Shown one piece after another: positions 3,375 through 34,499 of a stretch of 64,000 bases of DNA. The DNA lies in NCBI GenBank assembly GCA_964599655.1, contig CAZRGV010000002.1, positions 44,983 to 108,982 on the forward strand, in the 5' to 3' direction. The position numbers and the translations under genes were made by a program. The number at the start of each line of letters is the position of its first letter. Position 1 is the stretch's first letter. Origin of the DNA: an uncultured Isosphaeraceae bacterium (GTDB lineage: Bacteria; Planctomycetota; Planctomycetia; Isosphaerales; Isosphaeraceae). A model generated the notes under the pieces. That model made no database searches. It was given only the letters and a program-made list of their open reading frames with translations, and was not told the DNA's origin.

Positions 3375-3377
3375 GGA

Positions 3378-6609: not shown

Positions 6610-6672
6610 CCTTTATCGAAGTCAGGCCGTGTGCTACGTTTCTGCCTCAAGCTTCGGCCGACCAGGACTGTT

Positions 6673-7857: not shown

Positions 7858-7883
7858 AACAAGCCGCAGGATCCGATCACATG

Positions 7884-8933: not shown

Positions 8934-9097
8934 TGATCAAGAGTGGCATTAGCCAAGTCGAACCCAAACCAAGGTCCTGATTTACGAGGAAGCACGGATC
9001 CACTCGATGGACATGGAGCTGGTTTTCTACAGCTCTTATTGTGTCAATGCTGTTGGAATGAGCTGAAATGTCGTCAATGGATCCCGGAATTCGGATC

Positions 9098-9631: not shown

Positions 9632-9643
9632 GATCCAATCCCG

Positions 9644-12653: not shown

Positions 12654-12665
12654 GATCGGTGGTTC

Positions 12666-13472
12666 TCAGGAAGTCTTGGATTGCACGACATTGGTGACAA
12701 CCCTGCGCAAACCTCTGAGGCTGCTCAGGAACACAGGGGGTATGAGTTGACGAGTAATCGATTTAAATCGTGCAAGATAGCGGATTGGCTCTTTTTCGCT
12801 TTCTGCGATGTCATAAATCGGGTCGACTTCGTAAAAGGTTTTGAGTTCGTCGGAAGGAATCCGGCCAACTGCGTCCAGAAAACACCTGGGATCGCCAAGA
12901 AGCAGGTGCCGGAACTCCCTGATCCGCGGTGGATTCCAGTCCCACCATCGAATTTTCAATAGACCCTCAATCACATCGTGTGCGAATCGCGGCTTGAGTA
13001 ACTTCCAGGGATTTCCAATGGCGATGGAGTAGGGCGGCACGTCCGACCCGACAACAGTTCCTGCACCGATCACTGCGCCGTGACCGATCGTCACTCCGGA
13101 GAGTATTAGGGCTCCGTAACCAATCCAGACATCGGAACCGATCGTGACGGGGCCCTTGTACACGGCATCGCGGTAACGGATCTTCGTCGGATCGTCCCCA
13201 ACGGCGTCTGGATCCTCGCCATCATACCAGTGGAATGGAAACGATGTCGTTGAGCGATAGTTATGTTCGCCTCCTGCAAGGATTTTTGATGCCTTGGCAA
13301 TCGAGCAATAGTTTCCGATCCTGACCCTGTCCTCCGCCGAGTAGAGAATGAATTCCGGGGCGCCGTAGGTTCCTCGGCCAATCGTTATGCGAGGGTCCGT
13401 GACCCGCCAACGCAATTCTCTCGAAGACCGGCCAGCGAGTCGGAATCCAGGAGGACAGTGAGGCTGGTTCAT
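12666..13472 (-). CDS. Xenobiotic-acetyltransferase-type (CatB/Vat-like) hexapeptide O-acetyltransferase
   Basis: IGNYCSIA, GGEHNYRSTTSFPF, VTIGSDVWIGYGALILSGVTIGHGAVIGAGTVVGSDVPPYSIAIGNP and IRWWDW motifs. Start reset to ATG 13472 (MNQPHC) to avoid overlapping wzt. Confidence 0.75.
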   Translation of the reverse strand: MNQPHCPPGFRLAGRSSRELRWRVTDPRITIGRGTYGAPEFILYSAEDRVRIGNYCSIAKASKILAGGEHNYRSTTSFPFHWYDGEDPDAVGDDPTKIRYRDAVYKGPVTIGSDVWIGYGALILSGVTIGHGAVIGAGTVVGSDVPPYSIAIGNPWKLLKPRFAHDVIEGLLKIRWWDWNPPRIREFRHLLLGDPRCFLDAVGRIPSDELKTFYEVDPIYDIAESEKEPIRYLARFKSITRQLIPPVFLSSLRGLRRVVTNVVQSKTS

Positions 13473-13506
13473 GGGAAGCAGACAATATCGATCAAGCCAA
13501 GACGCT

Positions 13507-14805: not shown

Positions 14806-14864
14806 CCGATTGTTGCCCTTGAGAGGTCCACGGCAGCCGCAAACGGTGTGTCTGGGAAACGGCA

Positions 14865-15851
14865 TCAAATGATGTCTGCGAATCCATCCTCGACTTTCCG
14901 GAAGTAGAGGCATCCGGCAAGGAATGCGACGATGACACTCAGCGACGAGGTCCCCAGTCGCACCCAGGGAATCGATCCGCCCAGCGCCGCGGCTCGGAAC
15001 GCGGAAATCAGCCCGGTCATCGGGTTTGCGGCCAACAGGGTATGCATCAAGCTTCGAAACACATCGCTCGATGGAGATTCGGGATTTGCTTGCGGTTGAT
15101 CCGCATTCAACGACGACCCGATTTGACCACGATTCTCCGCGATCGCGGAATCATGATCAACTTGCATGTACACGCTCGGCGTGGCGAACATCCAAAGTTG
15201 AACCAGAAATGGGATCACGTAACGGAAGTCGCGATAAGCGACGTTCAACGATGCCAGAAGCGTCCCGACGCCCAGCGCGGCTATGACAATCAGACCGAAA
15301 ATCAGCGGTATCAGAATCAGCCCCATTCCAGGAACAATCTGATAATAGACCAACATGGCGATGAGCAGACCAAAAGCAACGACAAAGTCGACAACGGCCG
15401 CCCCAACCGCGGCAAATGGGATGGCCAACCTGGGAAAGTAAATCTTTGTGATCAGGCGTTCCGAGCCAACGACACTGTTCCCCGCGGATGCAATGGCGGT
15501 CGAGAAGAACGTCCAAGGCAAGAGACCGGCATAAGCGAATAGAGGATAGGGCAGACCTTCCGAAGCGACTCCGGCCATCCGACTAAAAAAGATGGTGAAG
15601 ACCACCATCATCAGCGCGGGCTGAAGAACGGCCCATGCCGCTCCCAGCAGCGTCTGCTTGTAGCGAACCTTCACATCACGCCACATGAGGAAAAAAAGCA
15701 ACTCGCGGAACTGCCACAGTTCGCGGACATTGATCAATTGCCATCCCTGTGACGGACGAATGATCGTTAGCGCATTTGTCGCGATGGGCGGTTTCGAGTC
15801 TCCCTCCGCCGAGGGAATTCGAAGTTCCACCTGCTGTTCCGTGATGGTCAT
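14865..15851 (-). CDS. wzm: ABC-2 type polysaccharide exporter permease
   Basis: RELLFFLMWRDVKVRYKQTLLGAAWAVLQP signature and about 6 hydrophobic helices, immediately upstream of wzt. Confidence 0.8.
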   Translation of the reverse strand: MTITEQQVELRIPSAEGDSKPPIATNALTIIRPSQGWQLINVRELWQFRELLFFLMWRDVKVRYKQTLLGAAWAVLQPALMMVVFTIFFSRMAGVASEGLPYPLFAYAGLLPWTFFSTAIASAGNSVVGSERLITKIYFPRLAIPFAAVGAAVVDFVVAFGLLIAMLVYYQIVPGMGLILIPLIFGLIVIAALGVGTLLASLNVAYRDFRYVIPFLVQLWMFATPSVYMQVDHDSAIAENRGQIGSSLNADQPQANPESPSSDVFRSLMHTLLAANPMTGLISAFRAAALGGSIPWVRLGTSSLSVIVAFLAGCLYFRKVEDGFADII

Positions 15852-16052
15852 GTCGACGTCGTCGCTTCCCAGATGACCCGAGTTGACCTTCCGATCGGCG
15901 ACCTCATGATGTTCCCCTCCTCCACGAAGGATGGGCTGTCGCTCGATCGACCGAGGGAGACCAAGAAACTCACAGTGCTAATATAGAACGGCAAACCGGC
16001 TCCGACTTTCGCCCCAGACGGCTCGAGGATCCTGTGGCCGCAGGGTGTTGTT

Positions 16053-17354
16053 CTAGTAGTTGATGTTAAATTTGATGAATAGAAAAATAAATATCAGAAA
16101 AAACACTTCTGAATAGAATGATCGTTTTAGGAACGACTGGTTGAACTGAGTCTCGCTCAACGGGAGTGTCGTTCCAGTGAGATGGATATACGCGGTTGCC
16201 AGGCCGAGTACGGTGTAGGTTGGCACGATGTAGGTTTCGGTAAGAGACATCATTCCCAGGGCATAACTCGTGATCAGGGCCATGAGGTAGGGACGAATCT
16301 GTCGAAGTTCCGGATCGGCCAGCCACACCGTGGTTGAACCAAGACGATGGATTGTTCTGAGGGCATGATAGAATGCTCCGACGAAGAGCATTCCGCCGAA
16401 GAACCCTAATTCAGTGGAAATATGGACGTAGGAATTATGTGCAACAAGACCCGCATACTGAACATACTTGTTGGTACCGATACCGAAGAGTGGAGCATTG
16501 CGAAGCTGTTGCAACCCTTCTTGCCAGATCTGAACCCGCTGCTGGGCTGTCCCTTCCGAGGTGGAAAGGCTGGTCTGCCGCCCACGAAAGAGGATGAACA
16601 TCAATGGCAGGGCAATCGCGATCAAGAAGAGCGATTTTTTCCCAGGAAATCTGCTCCGAAACAGGACCAACAACCCGGCCAAAACCATGAGGAAACCGCC
16701 GCGCGACCGCGTCAGATGAACCGCGTATCCGAACAACGCGAACGGCAACAACCAGAAGATTCGAAGCAAGCCCAGACCGCGGTCGCCGAGCCCATACAGA
16801 CAGATCATCATAGCCACAGAGAGATTCAAGCAAATATCATTGGGATCCCCGAACAACCCTGTCCCACGGAGCCGCTCGTAGGGAATCTCTTCACCGGAAT
16901 TCATATCATAAGTATATTCGATCAATGGATCGATTGCTGGGATATTCAGAATCCCATGAAAGTCGAGAACCGTCAAAACGGCGGACACGAGGTAGAAAAT
17001 CACCAGCCAGAACAACAACCAACGCAGCCGGCTTGTGCTATTCACGATCTCGACGACAAGCATGTAGTAAAGGATGGTTTTTCCAAATTCGAAGGCGAAG
17101 TTGAAAGCCTCCGCGACGTCCAGGTGCGACAGGTTCGATAGAAGCGACGCAATCAGCAAACCTACGACGCAAACCGTGATCGGCTGTTCTCGAAGCCGAC
17201 TGCTGGAGAGCTGACCCAGCAACGGACCAATTGAGATCAGAAGAGTTAAAACGATGAGTATCTCATAAATCGGAATTGTTTCGAGGCTGGGAATCAGCTC
17301 TGAAGGTCGTATATACAGAGTGCCGGTCACCAGGATCAGCAGGATGAAGTCCAT
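16053..17354 (-). CDS. O-antigen ligase/polymerase-like (Wzy_C domain) polytopic membrane protein
   Basis: Ten or more hydrophobic segments, with a central loop TRSRGGFLMVLAGL.. and AHNSYVHISTELGFFG typical of Wzy_C/O-antigen ligase family proteins. Start reset to ATG 17354 (MDFILLILV). Confidence 0.7.
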   Translation of the reverse strand: MDFILLILVTGTLYIRPSELIPSLETIPIYEILIVLTLLISIGPLLGQLSSSRLREQPITVCVVGLLIASLLSNLSHLDVAEAFNFAFEFGKTILYYMLVVEIVNSTSRLRWLLFWLVIFYLVSAVLTVLDFHGILNIPAIDPLIEYTYDMNSGEEIPYERLRGTGLFGDPNDICLNLSVAMMICLYGLGDRGLGLLRIFWLLPFALFGYAVHLTRSRGGFLMVLAGLLVLFRSRFPGKKSLFLIAIALPLMFILFRGRQTSLSTSEGTAQQRVQIWQEGLQQLRNAPLFGIGTNKYVQYAGLVAHNSYVHISTELGFFGGMLFVGAFYHALRTIHRLGSTTVWLADPELRQIRPYLMALITSYALGMMSLTETYIVPTYTVLGLATAYIHLTGTTLPLSETQFNQSFLKRSFYSEVFFLIFIFLFIKFNINY

Positions 17355-17388
17355 GATGCGTTCTGGTTTGATCGAGCCGCCCGGAGGG

Positions 17389-18108
17389 TCAACCCCTCGG
17401 TCCTGGATGTGGTCGCGGGTTCTCTTCCGTGGAGGACGCCTCCTTAATCCTGCCGGGGAAGAGGGTCTTCTGAAGCACCGGTAAGACATCTTTCAGAAAG
17501 GCCATGCTGACCGGGTCTCCGTCCGTCGGCGTCTGACGGCCCGTCGCGTGAATCACGTAGAGCTTGTATAGGAACGGATAGCTCGCAAACTCGAGTCGCG
17601 GATTGTCGGGAGCTCGCCAGACTCCCTGGGCACTCCAGGCCCAGAGAATTCGCAGATCGCTCGTCACCGTTGGTCCACGTTTTTCGAAATCGCCCGACCA
17701 GAACTCAGCTGGCGACGACGTGGAATCAGGAGGAATCGGCACCCGTCGTGGGGGAGCTTGTAACTCGAATCCCGCCGCCGTGTAGCAGATATCCGGGGTG
17801 TGAACCGCGATCGGCCCTGGGCGACCGCATACGATCATGATCGAGACCGATCGGCCATCGCCACGGTGCGTGTACGCGCGAGACAGGGATCCCTCGATTC
17901 CAGCCGCCTTGAGCACCCGATCGTCATCGAGCTCCTCCGACTGGCCTGCCCAGTCCCCGATATCCAGGGGTACGTCCTGAAGTCGGGCAACCGCATCCTG
18001 GAGATCGTGAGATGTGGACCAGCGATTCGTTCGCGAGCCATGAATGTAACCAACCAGCACGACGAGGACGGTCGCTGCCAGGTAGGGAATCGCTCGGACC
18101 ATCGGCAT
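17389..18108 (-). CDS. epsI: Exosortase-associated EpsI family protein
   Basis: N-terminal anchor YLAATVLVVLVGYI, DIGDWAG and the HTPDICYTAAGFE motif characteristic of EpsI. Start reset to ATG 18108. Confidence 0.7.
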   Translation of the reverse strand: MPMVRAIPYLAATVLVVLVGYIHGSRTNRWSTSHDLQDAVARLQDVPLDIGDWAGQSEELDDDRVLKAAGIEGSLSRAYTHRGDGRSVSIMIVCGRPGPIAVHTPDICYTAAGFELQAPPRRVPIPPDSTSSPAEFWSGDFEKRGPTVTSDLRILWAWSAQGVWRAPDNPRLEFASYPFLYKLYVIHATGRQTPTDGDPVSMAFLKDVLPVLQKTLFPGRIKEASSTEENPRPHPGPRG

Positions 18109-18130
18109 TCTCTCAGAAAGGGAAGCCTCG

Positions 18131-20413
18131 TCAAACCCCAGTGCCTGACCTGTAGGAGTACGCGTAGGAGTGGGAGTAGGTGGGATCATGGGTGCCGGCG
18201 ACGACGGCTCCAAGAACCCGGATGCCGAGCGTGCTCAGCCGTTCGTGGGCGGTGCGGACCATGGGAATGCGACTCACGTCACGGAGGATCGAGAACAGGA
18301 CCGCATCGACGTGCTGCCCCACGAGCAGCGCATCCGCAACGGGCAGAACCGGCGGTGAATCGACGACGACAAAGTCGTACTCCCGCTGGAACTGTGCGAA
18401 AATGGTCTCGAGGTCACCTCGGGCAAGGGCCTGGATGGCCTGCGAGTCGACCTGTCCGGCGAGCACCACGTTCAGGCCCGCGGCCTGCGTGGGACGGATG
18501 ACCTCGGAAATCGTCGCCTCGCCACGAAGAACCTCGCAAAGGCCGAGATCGGGCGTCAGGTCGAAGAGCCGATGCACGGCGGGACGCCGCAGGTCGCCGT
18601 CGACGAGCAACGTTTGTAGCCCGGCGCGGGCGAGACTTGCGGCGAGATGGCCAGAGAGCGATGTTTTACCTTCTCCCGCAAGAGCGCTGGTGACCATGAC
18701 GATTCGGAGCGATTCGACCCTCGAAGCGTGGAGCAGCATGGCGCGGGTGGAATCCACAGACTCGACCATCAGGCTCTGCCAGTCGTGTTCCGGGTTGCCC
18801 GAACTGGCCATCAAGCGTCGTCTCGTCTGATCGGGCAGGGCGGGCAAAGCGCCGACAAGGCGGAGTCCGACATCGTTGATAACTTGATGAACCGAGTTGA
18901 TTCGTCTCGCGCGATATTCCCAGAACGAGATCCCGAACAGCACGCAAGCCAGCGCCGCAATCGCGGCCACGCCGCTGATTTTGGCCTGCTTCAGCTCATC
19001 CTTGGTTTTCGGCTCATTGGCCGAGGCCACGACCTTGATCCGGTCTGGAGCATCGATCTCCACCTCCATGCGCTTGACCTCGGTGCCGACCCTCTGCGCC
19101 GTGTCGGCCAGCAACGAGATCTGATCTTGCTCGGACTGGAGATCCAGCGTGTTCTCGGTAAGGGTACTTAGACGTTTTTTCGATTCCTCGATCTCTGAAC
19201 CCAGTTCGTTCTCGAAGTGTTCGAGGATTTCAATCTCGCGATCCATGGATTCGGCTGCGGATGACGGGCCTCCACTGCTCGACATTTTCCGGAGTTGCTC
19301 GGTCAATCGAGGGCGGAGCCAGGCCCGGCGGTCTTCCAACGCCTTCCTCGTGGATTCGATTTCCCGTTCAAAGCGGAGCAGGGCAGGATCGTAGCGGTCC
19401 CTCGGGATACGGCTCACGCCCTGATGCTGTTTGGCCAACGAAGCGATCGTCGATTCGAGTTGGATGACCTCGGGATCTTTCGCGATCGCGTCTTCGACGG
19501 CGGAGAGATCGATCTCGGCGGGACGCGCGACTTTCACAGCGGCCGCCCGAGCCTTGGCGCGGACCAATTCCGCATGAACTCGCATCCGCTCCTGTTCGGC
19601 CATGGCCAGCTGTTGACTGGCAATCTGGTTCTTGTAGGCCAGAGTCGGCTGGTCACCCGAACCTGCTTGAAGGGCCAACTTTCGGAGTTGGTCCCGCTTT
19701 TCCTTCATTTTCTTTTGATAATCATCCCAGAGAGTTTTGAGGTTTTGGACTCGCTCGTGTCGTTCCTCTTTCTCTGTGTTGACAATGTTTTCCAGGTACT
19801 TGTTGACGACCGCGTCGACCAAGATTTGCAAATCTTTCGGGCGATTGCCGCTCATGGAGACAGCGACGAGTTCGGAGGACGGTGAAAAATCAACACGAAC
19901 CTGCTGCCCAAGCCATTCGACAGGGTCGGTCCTCTGAATCGCTTCCTTCACGGTCTCGAGGCCGGCAACCTTAGGGTCCGCCAGAACGGCCTCAAGAACA
20001 TTGCGATTCGTGATCAATTCCGCCTGCGTTCTTTGAAACACTCGGTAGTCGGCGTGGAGCTCCTCGGTCTGAAAAACCACCTTGGGCTGATACATCATGA
20101 TGCGCAGTACCGCCCGCGACGTGTAATGGGCCGGGGGAACGACGAACCACGTGATGGCGGCAACGATCGCGGCGCAGGTCAGTCCGGCGACCACGGCCAG
20201 CAGCCAGCGACGCTGCAGCGCTCGGAGCAGTTCCAGGAAATCCGGCGCCCCCGCCCCCGAGGGGGCCGACGGCCGAGCCAACGCATGATCAGCCGGACTG
20301 GCCGCCGGGATGACCCTGGTCGGCGTGACACTCTCGGGTGGCACGTTCTGAGCAGGAAGGCCGGGTTGCGGATCGATTGGATCACCGGGGGCGCCGACGT
20401 CGGGGGTGGACAT
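18131..20413 (-). CDS. Polysaccharide co-polymerase / tyrosine autokinase (Wzc/GumC-like, fused BY-kinase)
   Basis: Two TM segments flank a long coiled-coil periplasmic region. Walker A TSALAGEGKTSLSGHLA, LLVDGDLRRP, VVVDSPPVLPVADA, and a C-terminal Tyr cluster PTYSHSYAYSYRS. Confidence 0.85.
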   Translation of the reverse strand: MSTPDVGAPGDPIDPQPGLPAQNVPPESVTPTRVIPAASPADHALARPSAPSGAGAPDFLELLRALQRRWLLAVVAGLTCAAIVAAITWFVVPPAHYTSRAVLRIMMYQPKVVFQTEELHADYRVFQRTQAELITNRNVLEAVLADPKVAGLETVKEAIQRTDPVEWLGQQVRVDFSPSSELVAVSMSGNRPKDLQILVDAVVNKYLENIVNTEKEERHERVQNLKTLWDDYQKKMKEKRDQLRKLALQAGSGDQPTLAYKNQIASQQLAMAEQERMRVHAELVRAKARAAAVKVARPAEIDLSAVEDAIAKDPEVIQLESTIASLAKQHQGVSRIPRDRYDPALLRFEREIESTRKALEDRRAWLRPRLTEQLRKMSSSGGPSSAAESMDREIEILEHFENELGSEIEESKKRLSTLTENTLDLQSEQDQISLLADTAQRVGTEVKRMEVEIDAPDRIKVVASANEPKTKDELKQAKISGVAAIAALACVLFGISFWEYRARRINSVHQVINDVGLRLVGALPALPDQTRRRLMASSGNPEHDWQSLMVESVDSTRAMLLHASRVESLRIVMVTSALAGEGKTSLSGHLAASLARAGLQTLLVDGDLRRPAVHRLFDLTPDLGLCEVLRGEATISEVIRPTQAAGLNVVLAGQVDSQAIQALARGDLETIFAQFQREYDFVVVDSPPVLPVADALLVGQHVDAVLFSILRDVSRIPMVRTAHERLSTLGIRVLGAVVAGTHDPTYSHSYAYSYRSGTGV

Positions 20414-20477: not shown

Positions 20478-21443
20478 TTACTTCTGGCGAGGGGCGCTCT
20501 TTCCGCCCTGCCCAGCACGCCGGGAGGCTCCGCCGATTGGATGGCTCACCATGTCGACGCGCACGGCTGCTGGAACCGCGGGTTCGACGAACAAATGCGA
20601 GAGCAGTTGCAGCTCCAGCCAGAGCGCCCCAAGAGCCAGGGGCATCATCAGCCATCCCGCCAGGTCATGATAGACGGCATCCGCGACTTTGCTTCCCGCC
20701 GTTTCATGCAGTAATCCCGTGACCGTGATCCGGATGATATTGGCCAGCAAGGCGGTCGGGATGGCGCTCAAGAGGATGAAAGCCTTGTCAATCAAGGGGC
20801 GATGAATGATGAAGACGACCGCGGTCGAGAATGCAAAAAACATCAAGAGCATGCCCAGCCCGTTGCAGGCCTCCACAACCCCGATCTCGGCCTTGTTCAT
20901 CAGGATGATGTTGCCTTCCGCAACAGCGGGCAAACCAAGTGTTTGGAGAATATAGGTGCTGGCGATCGTCGCGATCCGCTGGAGTGGAGCACCAAGAGCA
21001 TTTTCCACTCGATACGGCATCGGAATCATGAAGATCAAGAAGACGATCGCGGGCCACGCCCAGGAGAGTGCCGTCCATCCACCCACCAGGAGACAGATGC
21101 CGGCCAGCGAGGGAACTAACGACACAGTGTCGATCCATGTCACAAAGTAGTATCCGCCCACCAGTTTCAGTGCCGCTCCCACCGCGATGAACGCCATGCC
21201 CGCCCAGGGAGCTCCGGACAGGGGTCCCGTCTTGAGCCGGTCCCGGCGCCACCAAAGCAGGAACAACGAGAAGGCCGGCACGAGGTAGCCGTGGGAGTAT
21301 CGAGGATCGGACGACCAGCGCTCGACCATGGTAACCAGGGATGGCCAGGTGGCCCAGAGTAGCCCAACCCCGATCAACCCGGCAAACACGACGGGTCGTC
21401 GGAGCCGTGAGTCGCGGTTGCCCGAGGCAGGCTCATGAGCCAT
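20478..21443 (-). CDS. Exosortase (EpsH/Xrt family transpeptidase)
   Basis: SSDPRYSHGYLVPAFSLFLLWWRR N-terminal signature, catalytic-type motifs VVEACNGLGML, ANIIRITVTG and HDLAGW, and about 8 TM helices. Confidence 0.85.
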   Translation of the reverse strand: MAHEPASGNRDSRLRRPVVFAGLIGVGLLWATWPSLVTMVERWSSDPRYSHGYLVPAFSLFLLWWRRDRLKTGPLSGAPWAGMAFIAVGAALKLVGGYYFVTWIDTVSLVPSLAGICLLVGGWTALSWAWPAIVFLIFMIPMPYRVENALGAPLQRIATIASTYILQTLGLPAVAEGNIILMNKAEIGVVEACNGLGMLLMFFAFSTAVVFIIHRPLIDKAFILLSAIPTALLANIIRITVTGLLHETAGSKVADAVYHDLAGWLMMPLALGALWLELQLLSHLFVEPAVPAAVRVDMVSHPIGGASRRAGQGGKSAPRQK

Positions 21444-22157
21444 GGAGAATACTCCTACGTTCTTCTTTCGGGGTCTGATTCCAAAAGGAGTCCGGCGGGA
21501 TGATCTCGGCGCACACTCCGTGCACGTGGGTTGCTCCAGGAAGAGCCGATCCCAAGATCATCCACTGTCTTAATCTAACCAATCAAGCGACGGCTTGCGA
21601 ACAAATCTTCAGAAAACCGGCTTCAGCGTGAGGTTCAGACTCCACATTCACGATTTCTAATCAAAACACGCCGAAGCCCGCCAAGGAACCAATCACCCGA
21701 AGTGACGTTGCTAGCATGACCTATTTTGTGCAAAAAGCTCTATCTTTGCCAGTTTTCAACAGCATGTTGCCTTAAAAGAACAACCCAACCGGGCTGGAGG
21801 GCACGCGTTCGAGGTCCGTCGATGGCGCACGGATTCCGCGCCTCGGCAGCGAGAGCCAATGGAGGGGGTCCCCATCGTTCTCGAGGATCAGAGCGCCCCC
21901 GATTCGCGATCGTTGCGAGTGGGTAATATCGTGGTGGCAGACGGATCTCCTGGATCGGAGAGATCGGGCGATGGTCTACTCTGCGACGTTGCACCAGACC
22001 AAGATGTTGGGGGAAGACTCCACGTCGCCGGCATCGGCGTTTCTTGTGTCTTCGAAAGTTATTATGAATCGAGGGGAGCGGGCATGCAAGCGTCTTTGGC
22101 GAATTTGTTCGACATCGTGCGAATCGGCAAGGGGAAATCTTGCGACGGGCTCAATGT

Positions 22158-22193
22158 CCGCCCCGGGCGCTGACAAATATGCGTCCGGGGCGG
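22158..22193 (-). terminator. GC-rich hairpin 33 nt downstream of the giant gene stop (possible terminator or RNA-stabilising stem, no U-tract)
   Basis: CCGCCCCGG(gcgc)-tgacaaatat-(gcgt)CCGGGGCGG: a perfect 9-bp stem, extendable by 3 more pairs after one mismatch on the minus transcript, with a 10-nt loop. No T/U run follows, so it is not a canonical intrinsic terminator. Confidence 0.3.
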
Positions 22194-22225
22194 GTCATCG
22201 TGGTTCTGGACTTGCGATCACTCAC

Positions 22226-25200
22226 TCAGCGAGAGCGCGGTTTTCGTTGGAATGGCCGGCTCGAGGGCTGGCTAGGGCGTTGTGGCCAGGCGGTTCTTTG
22301 CCGGGATTCACCCCGTCGTCGAGGGAGCAAGCTTCGGCGTGGCCCGTTCTTGCTAGAGGTATAGGTCACGTTGGGAGGGTCGAGTAACGCTTGACTGTTG
22401 GTACAAGCGATCGTGCAGGTTCCCAAGGACGACGGAGTAAACGTGAATGCACCCGAGCGTGTTGTATCGGTCAAGTCCAGGAACGCTGGGCTGAACGATC
22501 CGCTTCCATTGGAAACCGATGGCGTGATACGGACCGACCCGGTTAACGTCCCTGAGCCGAGAGTTACCGTGAACGGTGAGGACGGTTTCCCAACACGACC
22601 GGAGGAAGGGCTGGGAGCTCCCAGATCATAGGAGGTGACGGCCGCGACCACCGCCTGCCCTTGCACGGCTCCGATCCAGGCTCCGGCCGGCGTGGTCGGG
22701 CTCCCTGCGTCATGAGCGGCCTGAAGCGCCGTGTTGCGGGGAGCAAAGCCCGCCTTGGTCCACGCGACAAGCGCCGACGGATAACTGCTGTTCGAAAGCC
22801 CAAGACTCGCATCGTTGATGGTGAGTCCCGTTTGCACGGCATTGCGAATCTCGTAAAGGGATTGGAGCTCCCAGTACGCGAAGGACGCGGCGGATGTGCC
22901 CGGCTCGTCATTGCCCACACCCGAGGTGTGGGCCTGAATGCATCGATAATTGATCGATCGATTCCCGTAGACGCTCGCGTTGGAATGGGAAACGATGTCC
23001 CCGACGCTGTACGCCTGACCGCTCGGCACCCAGGCCGTGCCGGCCGTCCGGCCGAGATATCCCGTCGCGAACGTGGCGAGGTTCCGGCTGTCATCCACGA
23101 ATTGGGGATCGGCCACGACGCCGTGGGTTTGCGGCGTGCCCGACGTGAACATCGAGTTCGTGCCGTTGAGGTCGCGAGCGGCTCCCGACTGATTGAACAG
23201 GCAGTTGTAATCCAGGTTCGCCGCCGACACGAGGTCCTGGACCGCCGAGTCCGCGGAGCGGGAAAACAGGAAGCCCGCGTTCGATGTCCGCGACCACGCG
23301 ATATTCGACTTCACGCTTTCGTACTGATTGGCATGTCCGAAGTACGTTTCCCCCAGGTAGCAACAGTCGCGTTCCGTCGTGTTGCCGAACGAGGTGTAAA
23401 CCGTGTTGTGCTCCAGAATGAGGTCGAGATAATCCGTTCCCCCACCCGCCGCCAACGTTCCGAACGCTCCACCCGCCGCGTTGGGCAGGGTGATGCAATT
23501 CCGGATCGAGGAGACCACCAGGGGGCCCGAGGTTGGCCCGGAAACGATGAACGCCTTGCCTCGCTGGCTATACATCGCGTCAAAAATGATGTCGGAGTAA
23601 TTGGCACCAAAGATGCCAATATTTGTCATGTGAGCATTATACTCCGGTCCCGTGCCGCCATAGCTATCGCCGAACACGTACCCGTTCGAGGATGGCCCCG
23701 GCCAGATATGCTCGCTGCCGTCCGTCTTGCGATAAAGGAAGAAGTCGCTCATCGTCACGCAGGGGTTATAACCGCCGGAGACCCCGATCAAGCCATCCGT
23801 GATGAAGTTGCCCCCCGTGAAGCTGATCCCCCGGCAATCGCCGGCCGCCTGGAGCCCCTTGTCGAAGTAGCAACCCGTCACGGCCCATGTGCCCGTGGGG
23901 GTGGTCGTGGCCCCAAACTGAACCGTGTACGCCGCCGCCGAGTTTTTCCAGATCGATTGATTGATGCTGAGCGTCACGCCAGGATCGTTAGGCGAGACGG
24001 TGATGGGGCCGCACGTCTCGAACGTGCAGTGATCGAGGCGGAAGACGGCCCGGCTGGAATCGAGGATCGGCTCGATGGCGGCGGTTCCGGAATCACCCAG
24101 GCGGGTGAAATCGCAGTAGGCCGCCGAGACCGCACAGGAACGCATCGCGTAACTACCCGTGATGTAACCATTCAAGCCGGCGGCTCCCGCCTTGGTGCGA
24201 ATGAAGGCACGCGACGCCGATGTGCCATTAATGTTGAGCTGCGAATCCGTGGCGACGTTGATCTTGTAACGCTGACCACTGGGGGGATCGAACTCGATCC
24301 CGCTCCCGGCTTCGATCGTCAGGGGATAGAGAACGGCGGCGGGGTTGTACTGGCCGAACGTGGCGTCTCCTCGAAGCGTGAGGACCGCCCCGTTCTTGAT
24401 CGTGAGCGTGCCCGTGGCACAGGTCAGCTCAAAGGTGCCCGCCGCGCCCGAGGTGCCAATCGTTTGATTCGTCGTGATTGTCAGGTTGTGGTTGATCGTC
24501 GCGGTATCGCCCGCTCCGGGAACGATTCCCGTATCCCAGACGGTCGGATCGGACCAGTCGCCGGATTTGAGTGTGGTCGCCTGTCGGCTCACGCCCGCGG
24601 CCTGATAGGTCAGGGCGGCTGGGTTTGTCAGGTTTCCGTTGTTGGTGGTCGAGATTGTGACCGTTCCGGCGGAGGCCGCCGTGTAAGAGAACGCTCCCGA
24701 ACGGGTCGTGTTTGTCAAGTCGAGGTAGGCCGGTGTGAACGTCCCTCCGGCACCACCACTGTCGGGTGTGATCCGCAACGTATTGGCCAACGTGCCAGTG
24801 CCGAGCGTCACCGTGAAGTTGCTCGAGGCCACACCGACGGTCCCCGTCGACGGCCCCGTGAGGGTGTAATCCTTGACCGCGAGGACGTTCGACGTGTATG
24901 AGGCCGTCTGAGTCGAGGGCGACAGCGTGCCGCTCGAATCGGTCACCGTGATCGTGATCGAACCGACGGAAGCGGGCGTGTACGAGAATGCCATCGAGGC
25001 CGCGCTGTTGTTCCACGTCAGCGACGTTGGCGTGAACGTGCCACCCGCTCCACCATCGGACAGGGTCATTGTCCCGGTGAAGCTGCCGTTGGGAGCCACC
25101 GTGAACGGTTGCGAAACTTGCCCAACGATACCGGATGCAGGGTTGGGAGGAGTCAGACTAAACGTGGTCGCCGCGCCGGAACCGGCCGTGACTTTCGCGA

Positions 25201-28200
25201 ACGGGCTCATCAGGTGGTCGGAGACCGTGTTGAACCAGCCGAGATACCATGTGCCGGCCGAGGGGGGCGTGAACGTGAACGTCTGCGTCCGGTTCGTGTC
25301 GGTGATGGAGTACGTGCCGATCGGCACTCGGTTGGCCGAATCGACCGTCGGGACCGTATCGTAGTAGACGTAGATGTACGCCCCGAAATGGCTGTCGGAC
25401 GCGGGCTGATACTGGATCGTGTACGTTCCGCTCTGTCCGGCCGCGATCGAGCTGGGGCCCGTGATCGTGATGTCCGGCTCGATCTTCAAGACCTCGAACG
25501 CCGCCGCCGGGATCGTCGTCAGTTGATTCAGGTCCGACTGGACCCAGCGGCTATCGTTCGTGCCGTCGATCCGGAGCGTGCCCCCCAGGTCCGCCAGGAT
25601 CAGGCCGTACGTCCGCATCGCGTCCACGATCGGACGGGCCTGGCCCGTGAAGTTGGCCGCGTTCGCCGCGTACCACGCCGACGTCAGCCGCAGCCTCGTT
25701 CCGAACGGCAGGCCCTCGGTGGATGATCCGCTGTAGGCCGTGTGCCGGGCGGGGAAGATGTACTTGCTCCGCGACAGCGGCAGCCCCGAGAACGAAACGG
25801 TCGCGGTCGTGTAGCCCGAGCCGCCGCTGGTCAGGTTCAGGCCGTTGACGTGCCCCGAGCCGTCGACCGTGGCGGTCGCGGCGGCCCCGGTGCCGTCGCC
25901 CGTAATCGTCACGGCGGGCGGGTTCAGGTAGCCGGACCCGCCGTGGGTCAAGGTCAGGCCCGTGACCACGCCGCCGGTGATCGTGGCCGTGGCCGTGGCC
26001 GGATCGACCGTCTTGTAGGCGTCGACCGTGAACCGCAAGGCGTGGCCGATGTCCCCCGAGGCCACTTGATCGTAGTGGGCACAGAGGGCGACCATCGGCA
26101 GGCCAGCCGCGTCGCCCGACGTCGCCCCGTCGAGTCTGGGACCGCCGAAGGAGACGTACGACTGGGTGTCATAGCCCGAACCGCCGTCGACCAGGGTCAG
26201 GCTCGTGACCGAGCCGCCCGAGACCGTGGCCGTGACCTGGGCCCCCTTGCCGCTGCCCCCTTGGATGTAAACCTGGGGCGGCTCCGTGTAACCCGACCCG
26301 CCCGTCAGGAGCGTGACACTGGTCACGACGCCGCCCGTCACGACGCAACGGGCCGTGGCCGGGTTGTTCGTCGATGCCCCGGCGAGGGCCTTGAGGTTCC
26401 ACTTGGCACCGCCCGACGAATACCATTGGCCGTCGCCCGGGTAGTAGGACTGGTAATATTCCCAGACGTCCGAGACGCCGCCGGTGGCCTCGTCGCGGAC
26501 GAAGACGAAGTTGTGGTGGTCGCTGCCGTCGGTGGGGGCGGCGTTGGGCGTGGGCAGGTTGCCCGCGATCCCCTCGAAGACCATGCCGGACGCCGGCCAG
26601 GGGACCGGCCCCGGCTCGCTCTCGGGACCGTAGGCCCCCAGGACCAGCGGCAAGGTTGGCGTGTCGCCCCGGACGACGTTGTAGGGCATCCCGTAGGCCG
26701 TGTTGCCGCCGTTGGCGGTGCTCGCCGAGAAGTTCAAGCCGATGGTCGTCCCGGCCAACCGCTGAATGTAGATGTCCGAGTTGGGATCGACCGGATCGGA
26801 CGTGACGTCCCGCTTCAGGTCGGCCAGGTAGCCGAACGTGAGCATGTCGAACCCGCCCAGGGACGGGCTCGGCGAACCGTTGTAGGACCAGTTATCCGAC
26901 TTGCCGATCTGGACCATGCCCAAAAACGGGACCGGCGACGGATTGGGGAGGCCCCCGCTGTTGGTCGTGCTGATGGTCCGCGAGCCGTAGAGCGTCGGCG
27001 AGTAGGTGAACGTGGCCGACCGATTCGAGTTCGTCAGCGTGACGGAACTGGGCGAGAACGAACCGTCGCCGTTGGACGCGGCCGGCGTGAACGTGAGGCT
27101 TCCCGAGATGGCCCCCGAGCCCAGTGTCACCGTGAAGTTGCCGGACGCGGCGGCCACGTCCCCGGACGTTGGCCCCGTGAGGGTGTACGTCGTGACCGGC
27201 GAGGCGATCGTGAGCGTGACCGAGGCGGGGTTGGCGAGCCCGCCGTCGTTCGTGACGGAGATCGGGATCGACTGGCCGGCCGAGGCCCCCGACGCGGGCG
27301 TGTAGGTGAACGTGGCGGCTGGGCTGGCGGAGGTCAGGCCGACCGAACCGGGCGTGAACGTGCCGCCCGCCCCACCATCCGACAGCGTGACGTTCAAGGT
27401 GCCGCTGACGGTCGTGTATGCCGGCAACGCGACCGTGAAGTTCTCGCTCGGCTGCCCGGCGAGGGCGGTGAGCGTTGCCGGCCCGGTCAGGTTGTAGGTC
27501 GTCGCGGGCGTGGTCGCCGTCGCGTGGATCGAGGAGGTTTCGATCCAGAGGCCATTGGCGTCGACCGCCGAAAGCGTGATGGGCCCCGTGACGGCCGGCG
27601 TGTACGTGAACGTGGCGGACGGGCTGGCGGTGCTCAGGCTGAGGCTCGCGGGCGAGAACGAGCCGCCGGCCGAACCATCGGAAAGCGTGATCGCGTCCCC
27701 GGCGGAGGTGGTCCCGTCGGCGAGGGCCACCATGTAATTCGACGACGCCGACCCCCGGACCAGCGTGCTGGGGCCGCTGAACGCATAGGAGAGGGCGGGA
27801 TAGGGCCCCGCCGTGGCCGATTGCGAGGCCCCGTTGAGGGTCCAGGCGGATCGGTACGTGTTGCCCGAGATTGTGAACGCGGACTGGAGCGTGACGGCCT
27901 GGTCGAAGTCGTTGTTCGTGACCGCCCAGGTGCCGGTCGTCAACGCGGCCGAGGCCGTGGCGTTGAGTTCGGTCGCGGCCAGAGACCTGAGGAACGAACA
28001 GGCATTGACCTGGAACGTCGCCGCTCCGTTCGCGACCGGGATGGCCGTCCCGGTTGTGTTCGCGTGCGAGACCTGCCCGCAATTGATCAGCCGGCAATGG
28101 TCCAGCCGGAGCACCCCATCCCGGTTTTCGCTATTGGACGCAAAGGGAAGCGTGCTGGAATCGCCGATCCGGAGGAAGTCGCCATACTCGGCGTCAACCC

Positions 28201-28930
28201 AGCCGCCGCCGAAATTGCCCCCGTTGGTGAAATGGCCGTTGCCGCCGCCGGAGACGGACTGGATGAGGAATCGGGAACCGGCCGTGCCTCGGACCAGGAA
28301 CTTGGCATAATCGGCGGCGGACCCGATGTAATTGTTGCTGATCTGCCAGGTCCAGCGGGTGGTCGTTGGACTGGCGGCCTGGGTGGCATCAAACAGGATT
28401 TTCCCGTTGCCGTTGCCCGTGACCGTGACGCCGTTGGCCTGAACCACGTTGCCACGCAGGGTCAACGTGACGCCGGGATTGATGGTCAGGTTGGCGTTGA
28501 GGATCAAGGCCGTCGCCCCAGCGTTCGACGAGCCAAGATCGGCATTGGTATCGAGCGTGACGGCATGCCCGACCGTGACCGTGTCCCCTGTTCTGGGCAC
28601 GGTTCCAGAGAGCCAGATGGTCGGATCCGACCAGTTTCCTGATTGTACTGTTTGTTGGTTAATCATAAAACGATTCTGTTTAATGTGAGGTTTTAAAGGT
28701 GTTTCCAAATGCGATCGTACAATTTGCGGAGCTTCGGACAGTGGATTCGATTGCTCCCCGGAACGGGCAACCGGCACCTCGGGACCTGGATGCCGACGGA
28801 CCAAGGAAAACATCAGTACAGCCGCCGTGACGATCAATCCAAATGGCAAGAGTCGTCCCCACACGGAACGCAACCGACGGCGAGCGGAATGGCCGGATCC
28901 AGGAGGCTGTGTGGGTCGGTGATTCATCAC
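22226..28930 (-). CDS. Giant (2234 aa) N-terminally anchored, repeat-rich surface protein: two parallel-beta-helix-like modules, six ~90-aa Ig-like modules, central domain carrying GGSGY repeats
   Basis: Single uninterrupted ORF. Signal-anchor RLLPFGLIVTAAVLMFSLV. Module starts are QSGNWSDPTIW (28613-28645) and KSGDWSDPTVW (24536-24568). Six repeats follow the pattern Y.LTGP..FTV.L..LSDGGAGGTF.P..L....ATFTYTP. T/S/G/N-rich composition typical of secreted beta-rich proteins. Confidence 0.85.
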   Translation of the reverse strand: MMNHRPTQPPGSGHSARRRLRSVWGRLLPFGLIVTAAVLMFSLVRRHPGPEVPVARSGEQSNPLSEAPQIVRSHLETPLKPHIKQNRFMINQQTVQSGNWSDPTIWLSGTVPRTGDTVTVGHAVTLDTNADLGSSNAGATALILNANLTINPGVTLTLRGNVVQANGVTVTGNGNGKILFDATQAASPTTTRWTWQISNNYIGSAADYAKFLVRGTAGSRFLIQSVSGGGNGHFTNGGNFGGGWVDAEYGDFLRIGDSSTLPFASNSENRDGVLRLDHCRLINCGQVSHANTTGTAIPVANGAATFQVNACSFLRSLAATELNATASAALTTGTWAVTNNDFDQAVTLQSAFTISGNTYRSAWTLNGASQSATAGPYPALSYAFSGPSTLVRGSASSNYMVALADGTTSAGDAITLSDGSAGGSFSPASLSLSTASPSATFTYTPAVTGPITLSAVDANGLWIETSSIHATATTPATTYNLTGPATLTALAGQPSENFTVALPAYTTVSGTLNVTLSDGGAGGTFTPGSVGLTSASPAATFTYTPASGASAGQSIPISVTNDGGLANPASVTLTIASPVTTYTLTGPTSGDVAAASGNFTVTLGSGAISGSLTFTPAASNGDGSFSPSSVTLTNSNRSATFTYSPTLYGSRTISTTNSGGLPNPSPVPFLGMVQIGKSDNWSYNGSPSPSLGGFDMLTFGYLADLKRDVTSDPVDPNSDIYIQRLAGTTIGLNFSASTANGGNTAYGMPYNVVRGDTPTLPLVLGAYGPESEPGPVPWPASGMVFEGIAGNLPTPNAAPTDGSDHHNFVFVRDEATGGVSDVWEYYQSYYPGDGQWYSSGGAKWNLKALAGASTNNPATARCVVTGGVVTSVTLLTGGSGYTEPPQVYIQGGSGKGAQVTATVSGGSVTSLTLVDGGSGYDTQSYVSFGGPRLDGATSGDAAGLPMVALCAHYDQVASGDIGHALRFTVDAYKTVDPATATATITGGVVTGLTLTHGGSGYLNPPAVTITGDGTGAAATATVDGSGHVNGLNLTSGGSGYTTATVSFSGLPLSRSKYIFPARHTAYSGSSTEGLPFGTRLRLTSAWYAANAANFTGQARPIVDAMRTYGLILADLGGTLRIDGTNDSRWVQSDLNQLTTIPAAAFEVLKIEPDITITGPSSIAAGQSGTYTIQYQPASDSHFGAYIYVYYDTVPTVDSANRVPIGTYSITDTNRTQTFTFTPPSAGTWYLGWFNTVSDHLMSPFAKVTAGSGAATTFSLTPPNPASGIVGQVSQPFTVAPNGSFTGTMTLSDGGAGGTFTPTSLTWNNSAASMAFSYTPASVGSITITVTDSSGTLSPSTQTASYTSNVLAVKDYTLTGPSTGTVGVASSNFTVTLGTGTLANTLRITPDSGGAGGTFTPAYLDLTNTTRSGAFSYTAASAGTVTISTTNNGNLTNPAALTYQAAGVSRQATTLKSGDWSDPTVWDTGIVPGAGDTATINHNLTITTNQTIGTSGAAGTFELTCATGTLTIKNGAVLTLRGDATFGQYNPAAVLYPLTIEAGSGIEFDPPSGQRYKINVATDSQLNINGTSASRAFIRTKAGAAGLNGYITGSYAMRSCAVSAAYCDFTRLGDSGTAAIEPILDSSRAVFRLDHCTFETCGPITVSPNDPGVTLSINQSIWKNSAAAYTVQFGATTTPTGTWAVTGCYFDKGLQAAGDCRGISFTGGNFITDGLIGVSGGYNPCVTMSDFFLYRKTDGSEHIWPGPSSNGYVFGDSYGGTGPEYNAHMTNIGIFGANYSDIIFDAMYSQRGKAFIVSGPTSGPLVVSSIRNCITLPNAAGGAFGTLAAGGGTDYLDLILEHNTVYTSFGNTTERDCCYLGETYFGHANQYESVKSNIAWSRTSNAGFLFSRSADSAVQDLVSAANLDYNCLFNQSGAARDLNGTNSMFTSGTPQTHGVVADPQFVDDSRNLATFATGYLGRTAGTAWVPSGQAYSVGDIVSHSNASVYGNRSINYRCIQAHTSGVGNDEPGTSAASFAYWELQSLYEIRNAVQTGLTINDASLGLSNSSYPSALVAWTKAGFAPRNTALQAAHDAGSPTTPAGAWIGAVQGQAVVAAVTSYDLGAPSPSSGRVGKPSSPFTVTLGSGTLTGSVRITPSVSNGSGSFSPAFLDLTDTTRSGAFTFTPSSLGTCTIACTNSQALLDPPNVTYTSSKNGPRRSLLPRRRGESRQRTAWPQRPSQPSSRPFQRKPRSR

Positions 28931-29475
28931 GAAGCGTTCCCAACGTTGTCCGCCACGCGTGCCCAGACCAGTCGGATCGCGCCGATTCTATCGCCTATTC
29001 CGACCCTGGGATCGCCCCGATCGAAATGTGGAGGATTCCCAGGGCTCCAGAGGAGGAACTTCTCGAGCCAAGGACAGGGCCCGACGGCGAACCTTCCCGG
29101 CTGGCAAGCGACAAACCGGGTCCCTGTCGGGTTGTCCCGCGTCTGATCTCTTTCCGTCTGATACTATCGAGGCGGAGGCTGGATCGATTCGGATTATTTT
29201 TTGAATTTCGGAGCCGAGGGCGTTGCAAGTCGGGCATCACGCGAGCATGAGATCGAGGGGCGAGCAACGCGTTGGGAAGGGATTGTGCCCAGACAAGGCG
29301 CGAGGAAGGTGGTTGGTCCCGACCCTGTCGCCTCCGGCGCAAGAGGCCACAGTCGGTCATTCGACCCCATCGGGCTCGCAAAGGGAATCGCGCGAGGTTT
29401 GAGGTGGAAGCCTTCGAGCGTGATGAGCCAGATGTCGACATGGCTCCTTGGAGAGATCCAATCAAATCACGTCGG

Positions 29476-30207
29476 TCAGGAGGTCGATTCGGATGTGACC
29501 CCATCCGCCGGACTCGTTGGTACCCCGAACCACTTGCACGAACGATCGCAAGGAATCCCGAAGATCTTGGTTGCCGTGGCCAGGATAATTCGGGCGTCCA
29601 GATCCAGATTCATGGAGCGCACATAGTGCAGGTCGCACGCGAGCTTGCGTTCGACAGCGGCAATATCGGTATCCGCCGGAAGCTGGACCTGGGCCAGACC
29701 CGTGATCCCGGGACGAATCACCAGACGATCCCGATAGCCAGGAATCACCTGCTGCAACTCGCGAACGAACTCGGGACGTTCGGGCCGGGGTCCCACCAGG
29801 CTCATCTCACCCCGAAGAACATTCCAGAGCTGGGGCAGCTCATCCAGATGGCTCGCCCGGAGGAAGCGGCCGAAGGGAGTGATTCGCGGATCGTCTTCCG
29901 TCGCCCATCGCGGACCGGTCTGTCGCTCGCAGTCGTGTTGCATCGATCGCAGTTTGAACATCGTGTAACGCCGGCCGTGACGGCCAAGACGCACCTGCGC
30001 GTAAATGGCCGGGCCAGGGGAAGTCCACTTCACGAGAATCATCAGTACGAGGATCAAGGGACTCAGCAGGACCAGCAGCATGGCGGCGAAGACCACGTCA
30101 AGTGTCACCTTCAAGGGGCCATACCACATGGCAGACGGCGACACGACGACGTTGTCGGTCATCACCCGTGTAACACTTTGTGAGGGAGCTTCAATCTTGG
30201 TAAACAT
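29476..30207 (-). CDS. Polyprenyl-phosphate sugar-phosphate transferase (Bac_transf family, priming glycosyltransferase)
   Basis: [85 protein letters not shown]. The ORF extends to 30444, but that extension is AT-rich and atypical, so the start was set at ATG 30207. Confidence 0.8.
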
Positions 30208-30481
30208 ATTCCCCTCGAAACACGCCGGTTTCGATGTGTATGGAATCACCTTTGGTGCACAACCAACCGCCGCGTTGCCCAGAAGTCGACATCCCGATTT
30301 CAGAGTTCCGCCGAAAACGTGGTTCCGTCTGATGCACGCAGTATTGCTCGAAACCAGGACAATGCTACCAAGCCTACGTCGCATTTCAACGAAAATATTT
30401 CGCAATAGATCGAAAAAGTTTTCCAGCGCTTGACCGCATTGCACGAAACCGTGGTCTTTTCACACTATCACTGGTTTGTCC

Positions 30482-33938: not shown

Positions 33939-34499
33939 TTACGCCCGCTCGACCTGCCAGTCCTGGAGCTCCACCGACGCGCCTCGACCGAGAAAATGCA
34001 CGGACGCCACGAACTCGTCCCGCTTGTCGCGACGGACGACGACTCCAACCAGCCCGGTCAAGGGTCCGCTCACAATCCGAATCAACGTTCCCACCGGGTT
34101 GCTGGGCTCGGGAACCACCGTCAGGCCCGATGAGAGCATCTGGTGAATCTGGCGAAGGTCCCGATCCAGGCCGGTCTGGTCAGGAACGGTCAGCACCTTG
34201 ACCAAAGTATTCTTCTTGAGACTTTCGATACGATCCTGCTCGTCGCCGAGCAGGAACAGGTAGCTGGTGAACAGGGGCACGATCGATCGGATTTTCCGAC
34301 CCCCCGGAGTCCGGCTCTCTTGGATCACCAAGGGCAGATAATACGAGAGCCCCCGAGAGCGCAAGTGGCGGGCGGTGGCCTTCTCCTGGCGAGGCTTCGT
34401 GTGCAGGCACCACCACTTCAGACCCGCTTCCGGTTTCAGGGTCGGCTGGTCCCAGAGGTCCGGAGGATACAGCTCCGGTTCGGCGGGAAGAATCGGCAT
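33939..34499 (-). CDS. NusG-family transcription antiterminator paralog (RfaH/UpxY/LoaP-like)
   Basis: NGN-like WWCLHTKPRQEKATARHLRSRGLSYYLPL..IVPLFTSYLFL and a KOW-like GTLIRIVSGPLTGLVGVVV segment. 186 aa, at the upstream end of the glycan array. Confidence 0.8.
   Translation of the reverse strand: MPILPAEPELYPPDLWDQPTLKPEAGLKWWCLHTKPRQEKATARHLRSRGLSYYLPLVIQESRTPGGRKIRSIVPLFTSYLFLLGDEQDRIESLKKNTLVKVLTVPDQTGLDRDLRQIHQMLSSGLTVVPEPSNPVGTLIRIVSGPLTGLVGVVVRRDKRDEFVASVHFLGRGASVELQDWQVERA

Follow-up and report, generated by a model that had tools for sequence, protein, structure and literature searches.

The exosortase encoded in the window (the whole 64,000-nucleotide stretch that was analysed) is most probably a normal exosortase of a polysaccharide locus, with about 40 canonical client proteins dispersed over the genome and a giant neighbour that is outside the conserved gene run and is not a client. 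The sequence-only reading had pointed to an exosortase without visible substrates. This apparent anomaly was resolved, since the substrates were canonical and were dispersed as in the published PEP-CTERM/EpsH system. The locus fits the published pattern, and its sole mild novelty is that no named Xrt subfamily cut-off was reached. The result has little significance beyond annotation.

Exosortase and the conserved gene run

The exosortase was identified by profile searches (Table 1). The match to PF09721 reached 215.3 bits and covered profile positions 2-253 of 254, and TIGR02602 was matched with 153.8 bits, above the curated cut-off of 105.55. The exosortase/archaeosortase signature TIGR04178 was located at residues 189-281 (64.7 bits, cut-off 23). 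Cys193 (EACNG), Arg238 (NIIRIT) and His259 were present and aligned with both paralogs of the genome. We take these three residues to be catalytic. The exosortase is predicted to be catalytically intact, as the signature region was kept with its Cys and Arg.

Table 1. Features of the locus, with positions in the window
Feature	Position	Strand	Evidence or remark
Wzm (ABC-2 permease) and Wzt (ABC ATPase)	13507-15851	minus	Wzt_C 27.4 bits, weak, below cut-off 30.4
Wzy_C / O-antigen-ligase-like membrane protein	16053-17489	minus	PF04932 56.7 bits
EpsI-like (DUF3485) protein	17389-18213	minus	PF11984 44.7 bits (cut-off 26.1)
Wzc-like chain-length determinant fused to tyrosine autokinase, 760 aa	18131-20413	minus	TIGR01007 121.1 bits (cut-off 108.05)
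Exosortase, generic EpsH/Xrt type, 321 aa	20478-21443	minus	PF09721, TIGR02602 and TIGR04178 profile matches
Spacer of 782 bp, giant gene to exosortase	21444-22225		Upstream edge of conserved exosortase module
Giant protein, 2234 aa, N-terminal signal anchor	22226-28930	minus	ORF, hydropathy
Bac_transf priming sugar-phosphate transferase	29476-30444	minus	Profile match
NusG paralog	33939-34499	minus	PF02357 38.9 bits; KOW 20.5 bits, below cut-off 22.3

A classification against the Xrt subfamilies, which the sequence-only reading had proposed, succeeded only in part: the generic exosortase model was passed, but the protein stayed below the cut-off of every named subfamily (XrtA, B, C, D, H, J, N, O, T, V, W, X, Y and Z; CrtA, CrtB and CrtC). 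Its best subfamily score was 179 bits for XrtD (cut-off 400), and XrtA and XrtW gave 149.9 (208) and 148.7 (425). The outcome was the same for both paralogs. Since planctomycete exosortases of this clade lie outside all named Xrt subfamily models, a dedicated HMM could be built for them. No experimental study of any planctomycete exosortase was found in the literature searched.

The exosortase was the first gene of a conserved polysaccharide-assembly module. Eleven proteins of the locus were compared with 18 related loci by tblastn. The run of exosortase, Wzc, EpsI and Bac_transf was found in seven of these loci (L031, L032, L038, L041, L043, L044 and L048), which belonged to Isosphaeraceae, Gemmatales and other planctomycetes. 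Wzy_C continued the run in three loci (L031, L041 and L048), and Wzm-Wzt came after Wzy_C in two (L041 and L048). The EpsI ortholog of the relatives was located after Wzc or directly after the exosortase. In the window, the Wzc-like gene stood between the exosortase and the EpsI-like gene. The Bac_transf gene was located upstream of the giant gene here, and between EpsI and Wzy_C in the relatives. The window exosortase clustered with the orthologs of the relatives and not with its own paralogs.

The Wzc-like protein also contained Wzz and P-loop domains and a C-terminal Tyr cluster, YSHSYAYSY. The EpsI-like ORF passed PF11984 (Table 1) and scored 24.1 bits against TIGR02914, below the cut-off of 42.8. 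Its start is likely the Met near 18108, immediately ahead of a transmembrane helix. The sequence-only reading had put EpsI beside the exosortase within 20478-28930, and both genes directly downstream of the giant gene. The EpsI-like gene was outside these coordinates, behind the Wzc-like gene. The exosortase was on the same strand as the giant gene and downstream of it, but a spacer of 782 bp separated the two.

PEP-CTERM proteins in the genome

The genome-wide TIGR02595 scan that had been proposed was run on the 6.68-Mb Isosphaeraceae assembly, and canonical PEP-CTERM proteins were detected, 29 of them above the cut-off. The union of this profile search with a pattern scan gave 40 candidates on 30 contigs. 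These candidates had the canonical layout of a PEP motif, a hydrophobic stretch and an Arg cluster; the tails found by TIGR02595 consisted of VPEP, a hydrophobic segment and RRR. In the window itself, no PEP-CTERM signal was found by HMM or by two independent pattern scans. Both expectations of the sequence-only reading, that the window held no substrate and that clients might be encoded elsewhere, were thus confirmed. The nearest candidate (C2:30906-31874) was found by pattern scan only and lay 13.1 kb to the left of the window. On the whole of contig C2, TIGR02595 matched nothing, even with a limit of E <= 10.

Exosortases and PEP-CTERM proteins co-occurred across related genomes, although imperfectly. 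In all 24 other family genomes, 7-49 PEP-CTERM matches per genome were obtained. Six class-level genomes had no exosortase; five of them gave zero PEP-CTERM matches and the sixth gave one. The exception was G028, with two exosortase matches and no PEP-CTERM match at E <= 0.01.

Based on these results, the exosortase leads a polysaccharide-assembly run, which in the seven related loci consists of exosortase, Wzc-like kinase, EpsI and the priming sugar transferase. By analogy with the PEP-CTERM/EpsH system, proteins whose C-terminus combines a PEP motif with a transmembrane helix and an Arg cluster would be cleaved or transferred by this exosortase. Its substrates would be the roughly 40 dispersed proteins on 30 contigs, none of which is in the window. 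We infer both this chemistry and that the window paralog, one of three in the genome, processes some or all of these proteins.

A Wzc-like gene was located beside each of the three exosortase paralogs, and it was considered whether the window exosortase has no sorting function, and instead processes or scaffolds Wzc, Wzy_C or EpsI in the glycan machinery, with another paralog handling the PEP-CTERM proteins. Such a role would agree with the gene linkage, since Wzc and EpsI accompanied the exosortase in seven of the related loci and Wzy_C did so in three of these. The presence of three paralogs, the distance of more than 33 kb from the exosortase to the nearest client and the lack of a named Xrt subfamily would also agree with it. 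However, the catalytic signature was intact, and according to published work bona fide exosortases are normally encoded in EPS loci (PMC1569441). All three paralogs were in the same kind of context, so context did not single out the window exosortase. In addition, pattern scans found a PEP-like tail in none of the module proteins. We regard this role as very unlikely. The sequence-only reading had more generally offered a non-canonical substrate or role. This found no support, given the intact signature region, the co-occurrence of exosortase and PEP-CTERM proteins, and the lack of conservation of both the giant neighbourhood and the giant's tail.

It was also considered whether the clients are partitioned among the three exosortases by subtle signal variants, with the window paralog serving a subset only. 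The client tails fell loosely into two groups, 'PEP[AGS]SLxLLxLGG' and 'PEPSTLA[ST]AG...LGY.WRRR..AA'. In relatives, an exosortase subclade with adjacent EpsI was accompanied, some 5-6 kb upstream, by a gene for a protein with a PE(L/M)PT-type tail, which indicated that dedicated pairings of exosortase and client exist in the lineage. However, the tail groups may merely mirror paralogous protein families, none of the three exosortases had a linked client here, and the PE(L/M)PT-type variant was searched for in this genome and was absent. Such a partition seems very unlikely. With three paralogs present, the assignment of clients to individual paralogs is beyond the reach of genomics alone. The preferred explanation remained a normal exosortase with dispersed canonical clients.

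The giant neighbouring protein

The giant protein consisted of two beta-helix-like modules, many Ig-like repeats and a central uncharacterised domain that was interrupted by GGSGY repeats, and it ended in a strongly basic tail of 40 aa rich in Arg, Pro and Ser. The sole Pfam match was a weak one to CBM_5_12, at 25.7 bits just below the cut-off of 26.2. The central domain matched no Pfam or NCBIfam family and no PDB sequence, and its core was unmatched by Foldseek with two confident AlphaFold models.

The protein was examined as a PEP-CTERM client and failed: there was no PEP motif and no C-terminal helix, and the basic cluster alone was present. Residues 26-44 formed the only strongly hydrophobic segment of the whole protein (Kyte-Doolittle 2.06), and the top 19-residue window of the last 150 aa reached just 0.94. 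The C-terminus was as the sequence-only reading had quoted it, and the absence of both motif and helix that was reported there was borne out. NCBIfam, with its C-terminal sorting-domain models, gave no match. A signal hidden by a frameshift at the 3' end of the gene was rejected, as no PEP motif or helix was present in any of the three minus-strand frames of 21400-22500, in agreement with the earlier translation of the alternative frames. The other two frames ran into stops quickly.

A public gene call of the giant protein was 2146 aa, started at Met89 and was without the N-terminal helix. The long start was favoured because the N-terminal signal anchor was kept in the closest homolog, which had 44% identity and was on a contig without an exosortase. 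The giant protein would be membrane-held or exported through this anchor. The homolog in genome G012 ended right after the last Ig repeat, which meant that the basic tail was not conserved. When the C-terminal 824 aa were used as the query among 60 other family genomes, homologs were found in only three, none of them adjoining an exosortase. A giant homolog was upstream of the exosortase in none of the 18 related loci, within the available 1-10 kb of upstream sequence, and the genes at this place differed in every relative. The GC content of the giant gene equalled the genome average, and lower values were obtained for the exosortase genes and for the glycan genes that followed.

It could be supposed that the giant protein is nevertheless a client, with its signal lost to an assembly frameshift or with the Arg/Pro-rich tail as a new helix-less signal. 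The gene shares its strand with the exosortase gene, and its product ends in a strongly basic tail. In addition, an unrelated 2795-aa giant upstream of the exosortase ortholog in L032 likewise had a basic C-terminal tail. However, the alternative frames, the missing sorting domain, the tail not conserved in G012, the protein's own N-terminal anchor common to the 44%-identical homolog and the lack of such adjacency in the other relatives examined argue against it. This idea was largely refuted, and we regard it as hardly credible. The giant protein is not an exosortase client but a chance, non-conserved neighbour.

The sequence-only reading had named, as evidence against itself, a clear Xrt subfamily with many canonical clients elsewhere and no functional link to the neighbour. 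Such evidence was largely obtained: many canonical clients were found and there was no conserved link to the neighbour, but no named subfamily was assigned.

Comparison with known systems

The epsH gene is 'nearly always' located among EPS genes, PEP-CTERM proteins average more than 10 per genome, and Planctomycetes are already among the PEP-CTERM-positive phyla (Haft et al. 2006, PMC1569441). The window resembled this system in its TIGR02602/PF09721-type exosortase within an exopolysaccharide locus, its EpsI-like partner and the dozens of dispersed proteins with PEP motif, transmembrane helix and Arg cluster. It differed in that the EpsI-like gene was behind the Wzc-like gene, not adjacent or fused to the exosortase, and in that the genome had three exosortase paralogs.

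The XrtA system also has a tyrosine autokinase with a chain-length determinant and a priming sugar transferase near the exosortase. However, all four of its models stayed below cut-off: TIGR03109 (exosortase, the XrtA score given above), TIGR03018 (kinase, 103.6 against 230.65), TIGR03007 (chain-length determinant, 31.7 against 278.85) and TIGR03013 (sugar transferase, 214.7 against 393.35). The window system is an analogue of the XrtA system and not a member. Partial HMM matches to XrtD and XrtW, confined to the exosortase half, ranked first or close to first. These are exosortases with a fused EpsI domain, whereas the window exosortase was without the fusion and far below both cut-offs, and the clients here had the classical VPEP and not VPLPA.

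The run, which reaches Wzy_C and Wzm/Wzt in some genomes, might head a distinct, unnamed exosortase system of Isosphaeraceae and Gemmatales, in which an ABC-exported glycan would be coupled to PEP-CTERM proteins by way of the exosortase and the O-antigen-ligase-like Wzy_C. It would then be more than a further instance of the generic EpsH arrangement; we consider this unlikely. The recurrent unit of exosortase, Wzc, EpsI and sugar transferase could steer genetics in cultured Isosphaeraceae.

Spacer and flanking regions

The GC content was 55% in the 782-bp spacer and 64% in the genome. The spacer contained no credible ORF and no concealed sorting signal. A comparison with Rfam gave nothing at E <= 1, sigma-70-like sites were absent, and the only terminator-like hairpins were weak. 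On the upstream side of the giant gene was a stretch of 545 bp with a low-complexity ORF as its sole content. This ORF of 169 aa (28995-29504) was rejected as probably non-coding because of its composition and the lack of a family match. The minus-strand array was headed by the NusG paralog, which could let transcription read through the whole array, and given this position the giant gene and the exosortase gene may be co-transcribed.

Predicted clients of the exosortase

The sequence-only reading had left two explanations for an exosortase beside a giant surface protein that lacked a sorting signal: clients encoded elsewhere, or a non-canonical substrate or role. The 6.68-Mb assembly (304 contigs; the window corresponds to positions 44983-108982 of contig C2), whose closest named relatives belong to Isosphaeraceae, was scanned with the PEP-CTERM model TIGR02595, and 29 matches were above the cut-off. 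All of them were located at the C-terminus of an ORF, mostly of 220-480 aa, and showed VPEP followed by a hydrophobic stretch and an Arg cluster. An independent pattern scan gave 37 candidates, and the union of the two scans was 40 candidates over 30 contigs. These results supported clients encoded elsewhere. The nearest candidate, C2:30906-31874, was 13.1 kb left of the window and ended in ...PAPEPGTLVTAFTALPLLGLGAWIRRRQRQS. It came from the pattern scan only and was not recognised by the HMM. The earlier statement that the window holds no substrate was also borne out. TIGR02595 gave no match on the whole of contig C2 even at E <= 10. In a de novo scan for C-terminal helices of any kind with a basic cluster behind them, the only match in the window was the last helix of Wzm. 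The same de novo scan revealed no second signal class in the genome.

Exosortases and PEP-CTERM proteins largely co-occurred in related genomes. Within the family, each of the 24 other genomes had PEP-CTERM matches (7-49 each), and an exosortase was seen in 22 of them; the two exceptions were 58% and 74% complete. Among six class-level relatives without an exosortase, five gave no PEP-CTERM match and one gave a single match. One genome went against the pattern, with an exosortase and no PEP-CTERM match. These results suggested an ordinary exosortase with predicted clients dispersed over the genome, and a non-canonical substrate or role was not supported.

Gene order and classification

The genes of the locus are listed in the table below. 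The gene anatomy described from the sequence was right, except that EpsI is the second gene past the exosortase and lies outside the interval 20478-28930 that had been assigned to the pair.

Features of the exosortase locus in the window
Feature	Position	Strand	Description
Sugar-nucleotide and glycosyltransferase genes	to about 5290	-	Pfam families
Wzm + Wzt	13507-15851	-	ABC-2 permease and ABC ATPase
Wzy_C	16053-17489	-	PF04932, 56.7 bits
EpsI/DUF3485-like	17389-18213	-	PF11984, 44.7 bits; TIGR02914 below cut-off
Wzc-like co-polymerase/tyrosine kinase	18131-20413	-	C-terminal YSHSYAYSY cluster
Exosortase	20478-21443	-	321-aa ORF; PF09721, 215.3 bits
Spacer between exosortase and giant			782 bp; no credible ORF
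Giant	22226-28930	-	ORF, 2234 aa
Central domain of giant	25478-26917	-	residues 672-1151
Low-complexity ORF	28995-29504	-	169 aa, between giant and priming transferase
Bac_transf priming transferase, GlmU-like enzyme, EEP phosphoesterase			upstream of giant
NusG paralog	33939-34499	-	upstream of giant; NGN domain; KOW match just under cut-off

The exosortase scored 153.8 with TIGR02602 (cut-off 105.55) and carried the TIGR04178 signature (64.7 bits, cut-off 23). Assignment to an Xrt subfamily yielded no name, and the generic exosortase model alone was reached. Since the models of XrtA and the other named subfamilies were all below their cut-offs, the locus is neither an XrtA system nor a member of another named subfamily. 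It is best placed in a planctomycete clade that has no subfamily name within the generic family. Haft et al. 2006 (PMC1569441) reported that the epsH homolog almost always lies among genes for extracellular polysaccharide and that EpsI adjoins it or is fused to it. In their survey, genomes with PEP-CTERM usually carried many copies of the signal (mean >10), and Planctomycetes were among the positive lineages. The window locus fits this picture. Biofilm, floc and motility phenotypes were later connected by genetic work with exosortases and PEP-CTERM proteins (PMC12188702, PMC9850573).

The genome encodes three exosortases, with pairwise identities of 31-41%. The other two, C2:9164-10132 and C21:53759-54742 (on contig C21), shared 41% and 32% identity with the copy in the window. 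All three passed the generic model only, kept the Cys, Arg and His positions in the alignment and adjoined a Wzc-like gene. The two paralogs each came after that gene in other polysaccharide clusters, and an EpsI-like gene came directly after the C21 copy.

The NusG paralog heads the minus-strand polysaccharide array of about 29 kb. Such a position is typical of operon-specific antiterminators. The 169-aa ORF was Arg/Ser/Pro-rich, and its low complexity and lack of a family match indicated that it is probably not a gene. If it is non-coding, the giant gene lies between spacers of about 545 and 782 bp, in an array whose other genes are closely spaced. The GC content was 64.5% in the giant gene compared with 64.4% in the genome, 61% in the exosortase, Wzc and EpsI genes, and 57% over 5290-20413, which holds the glycan genes downstream of the exosortase. 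Wzy_C was at 51%, compared with the same genome value.

Synteny in relatives

We compared 18 related loci from Isosphaeraceae (including Singulisphaera and Tautonia), Gemmatales and other planctomycete assemblies, whose exosortases were 38-61% identical to the window copy. In the tree, the window exosortase grouped with these orthologs, apart from its own two paralogs. Seven of the 18 loci had the order exosortase-Wzc-EpsI-Bac_transf, followed by Wzy_C in three of the seven and by Wzm-Wzt in two; EpsI came directly after the exosortase in six of the 18. Upstream of the exosortase, the genes were different in every genome and included glycosyltransferases, TPR proteins and divergently transcribed genes. 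The available upstream sequence, 1-10 kb per locus, contained no giant homolog at any of the loci. By this synteny, a recurrent run begins with the exosortase, and the giant is outside it. The priming transferase follows EpsI in relatives and lies upstream of the giant in the window, a displacement that indicates a putative local rearrangement.

With the C-terminal 824 residues of the giant as query, homologs were found in 3 of 60 other family genomes, and none of them adjoined an exosortase. The contig of the closest homolog held no exosortase. These results suggested that the giant adjoins the exosortase by chance. For the giant itself, N-terminal targeting is predicted (see below).

In one Isosphaeraceae MAG (L032), an unrelated 2795-aa FG-GAP-like giant gene (137-8524), cut by the contig end, was directly upstream of the exosortase ortholog and had a basic tail without a helix at the C-terminus. 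This pairing is probably a coincidence because giant genes are abundant in planctomycetes. At four other loci (L034 2389-3354, L035 3998-5074, L042 4049-4978 and L047 4959-5243), proteins ended in PE(L/M)PT, a transmembrane helix and a basic cluster. They were about 5-7.6 kb upstream of an exosortase with EpsI directly after it or possibly fused. The tail is a candidate dedicated variant signal of this exosortase-EpsI subclade, and it was absent from the window's own genome.

Targeting and central domain of the giant protein

The C-terminus of the giant was as previously quoted, and the absence of a PEP-CTERM-type signal was confirmed by hydropathy, NCBIfam and TIGR02595. The last 150 residues held no hydrophobic helix (top 19-residue window, 0.94), and NCBIfam, which holds C-terminal sorting-domain models, gave no match to the giant. 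A hidden signal was also considered. Both remaining frames downstream reached stops without a helix or PEP motif, in line with the sequence-only reading of these frames. The Arg/Pro/Ser-rich tail is not conserved, since in a homolog from another genus the protein ends with the last Ig-like repeat. Across the entire giant, strong hydrophobicity over 19 residues was confined to residues 26-44 (score 2.06). A public gene call starts at Met89. The closest homolog (44% identity over 1390 residues) also has an N-terminal signal anchor, just ahead of its first beta-helix module. This shared anchor favoured the long start and supports predicted N-terminal export or anchoring.

With 7529 representative proteins at E <= 1e-3, the family of the central domain is very large but uncharacterised, and the domain had no sequence match in Pfam, NCBIfam or the PDB. 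AlphaFold models were confident for the giant's domain (pLDDT 88.8) and for a 437-aa homolog (94.4), and Foldseek with these models gave no PDB match to the core. The ten invariant columns include His, Glu, His, Arg and Asp, a set compatible with the active site of an enzyme. In the giant's copy, the domain is interrupted by four GGSGY-type beta-sandwich inserts.
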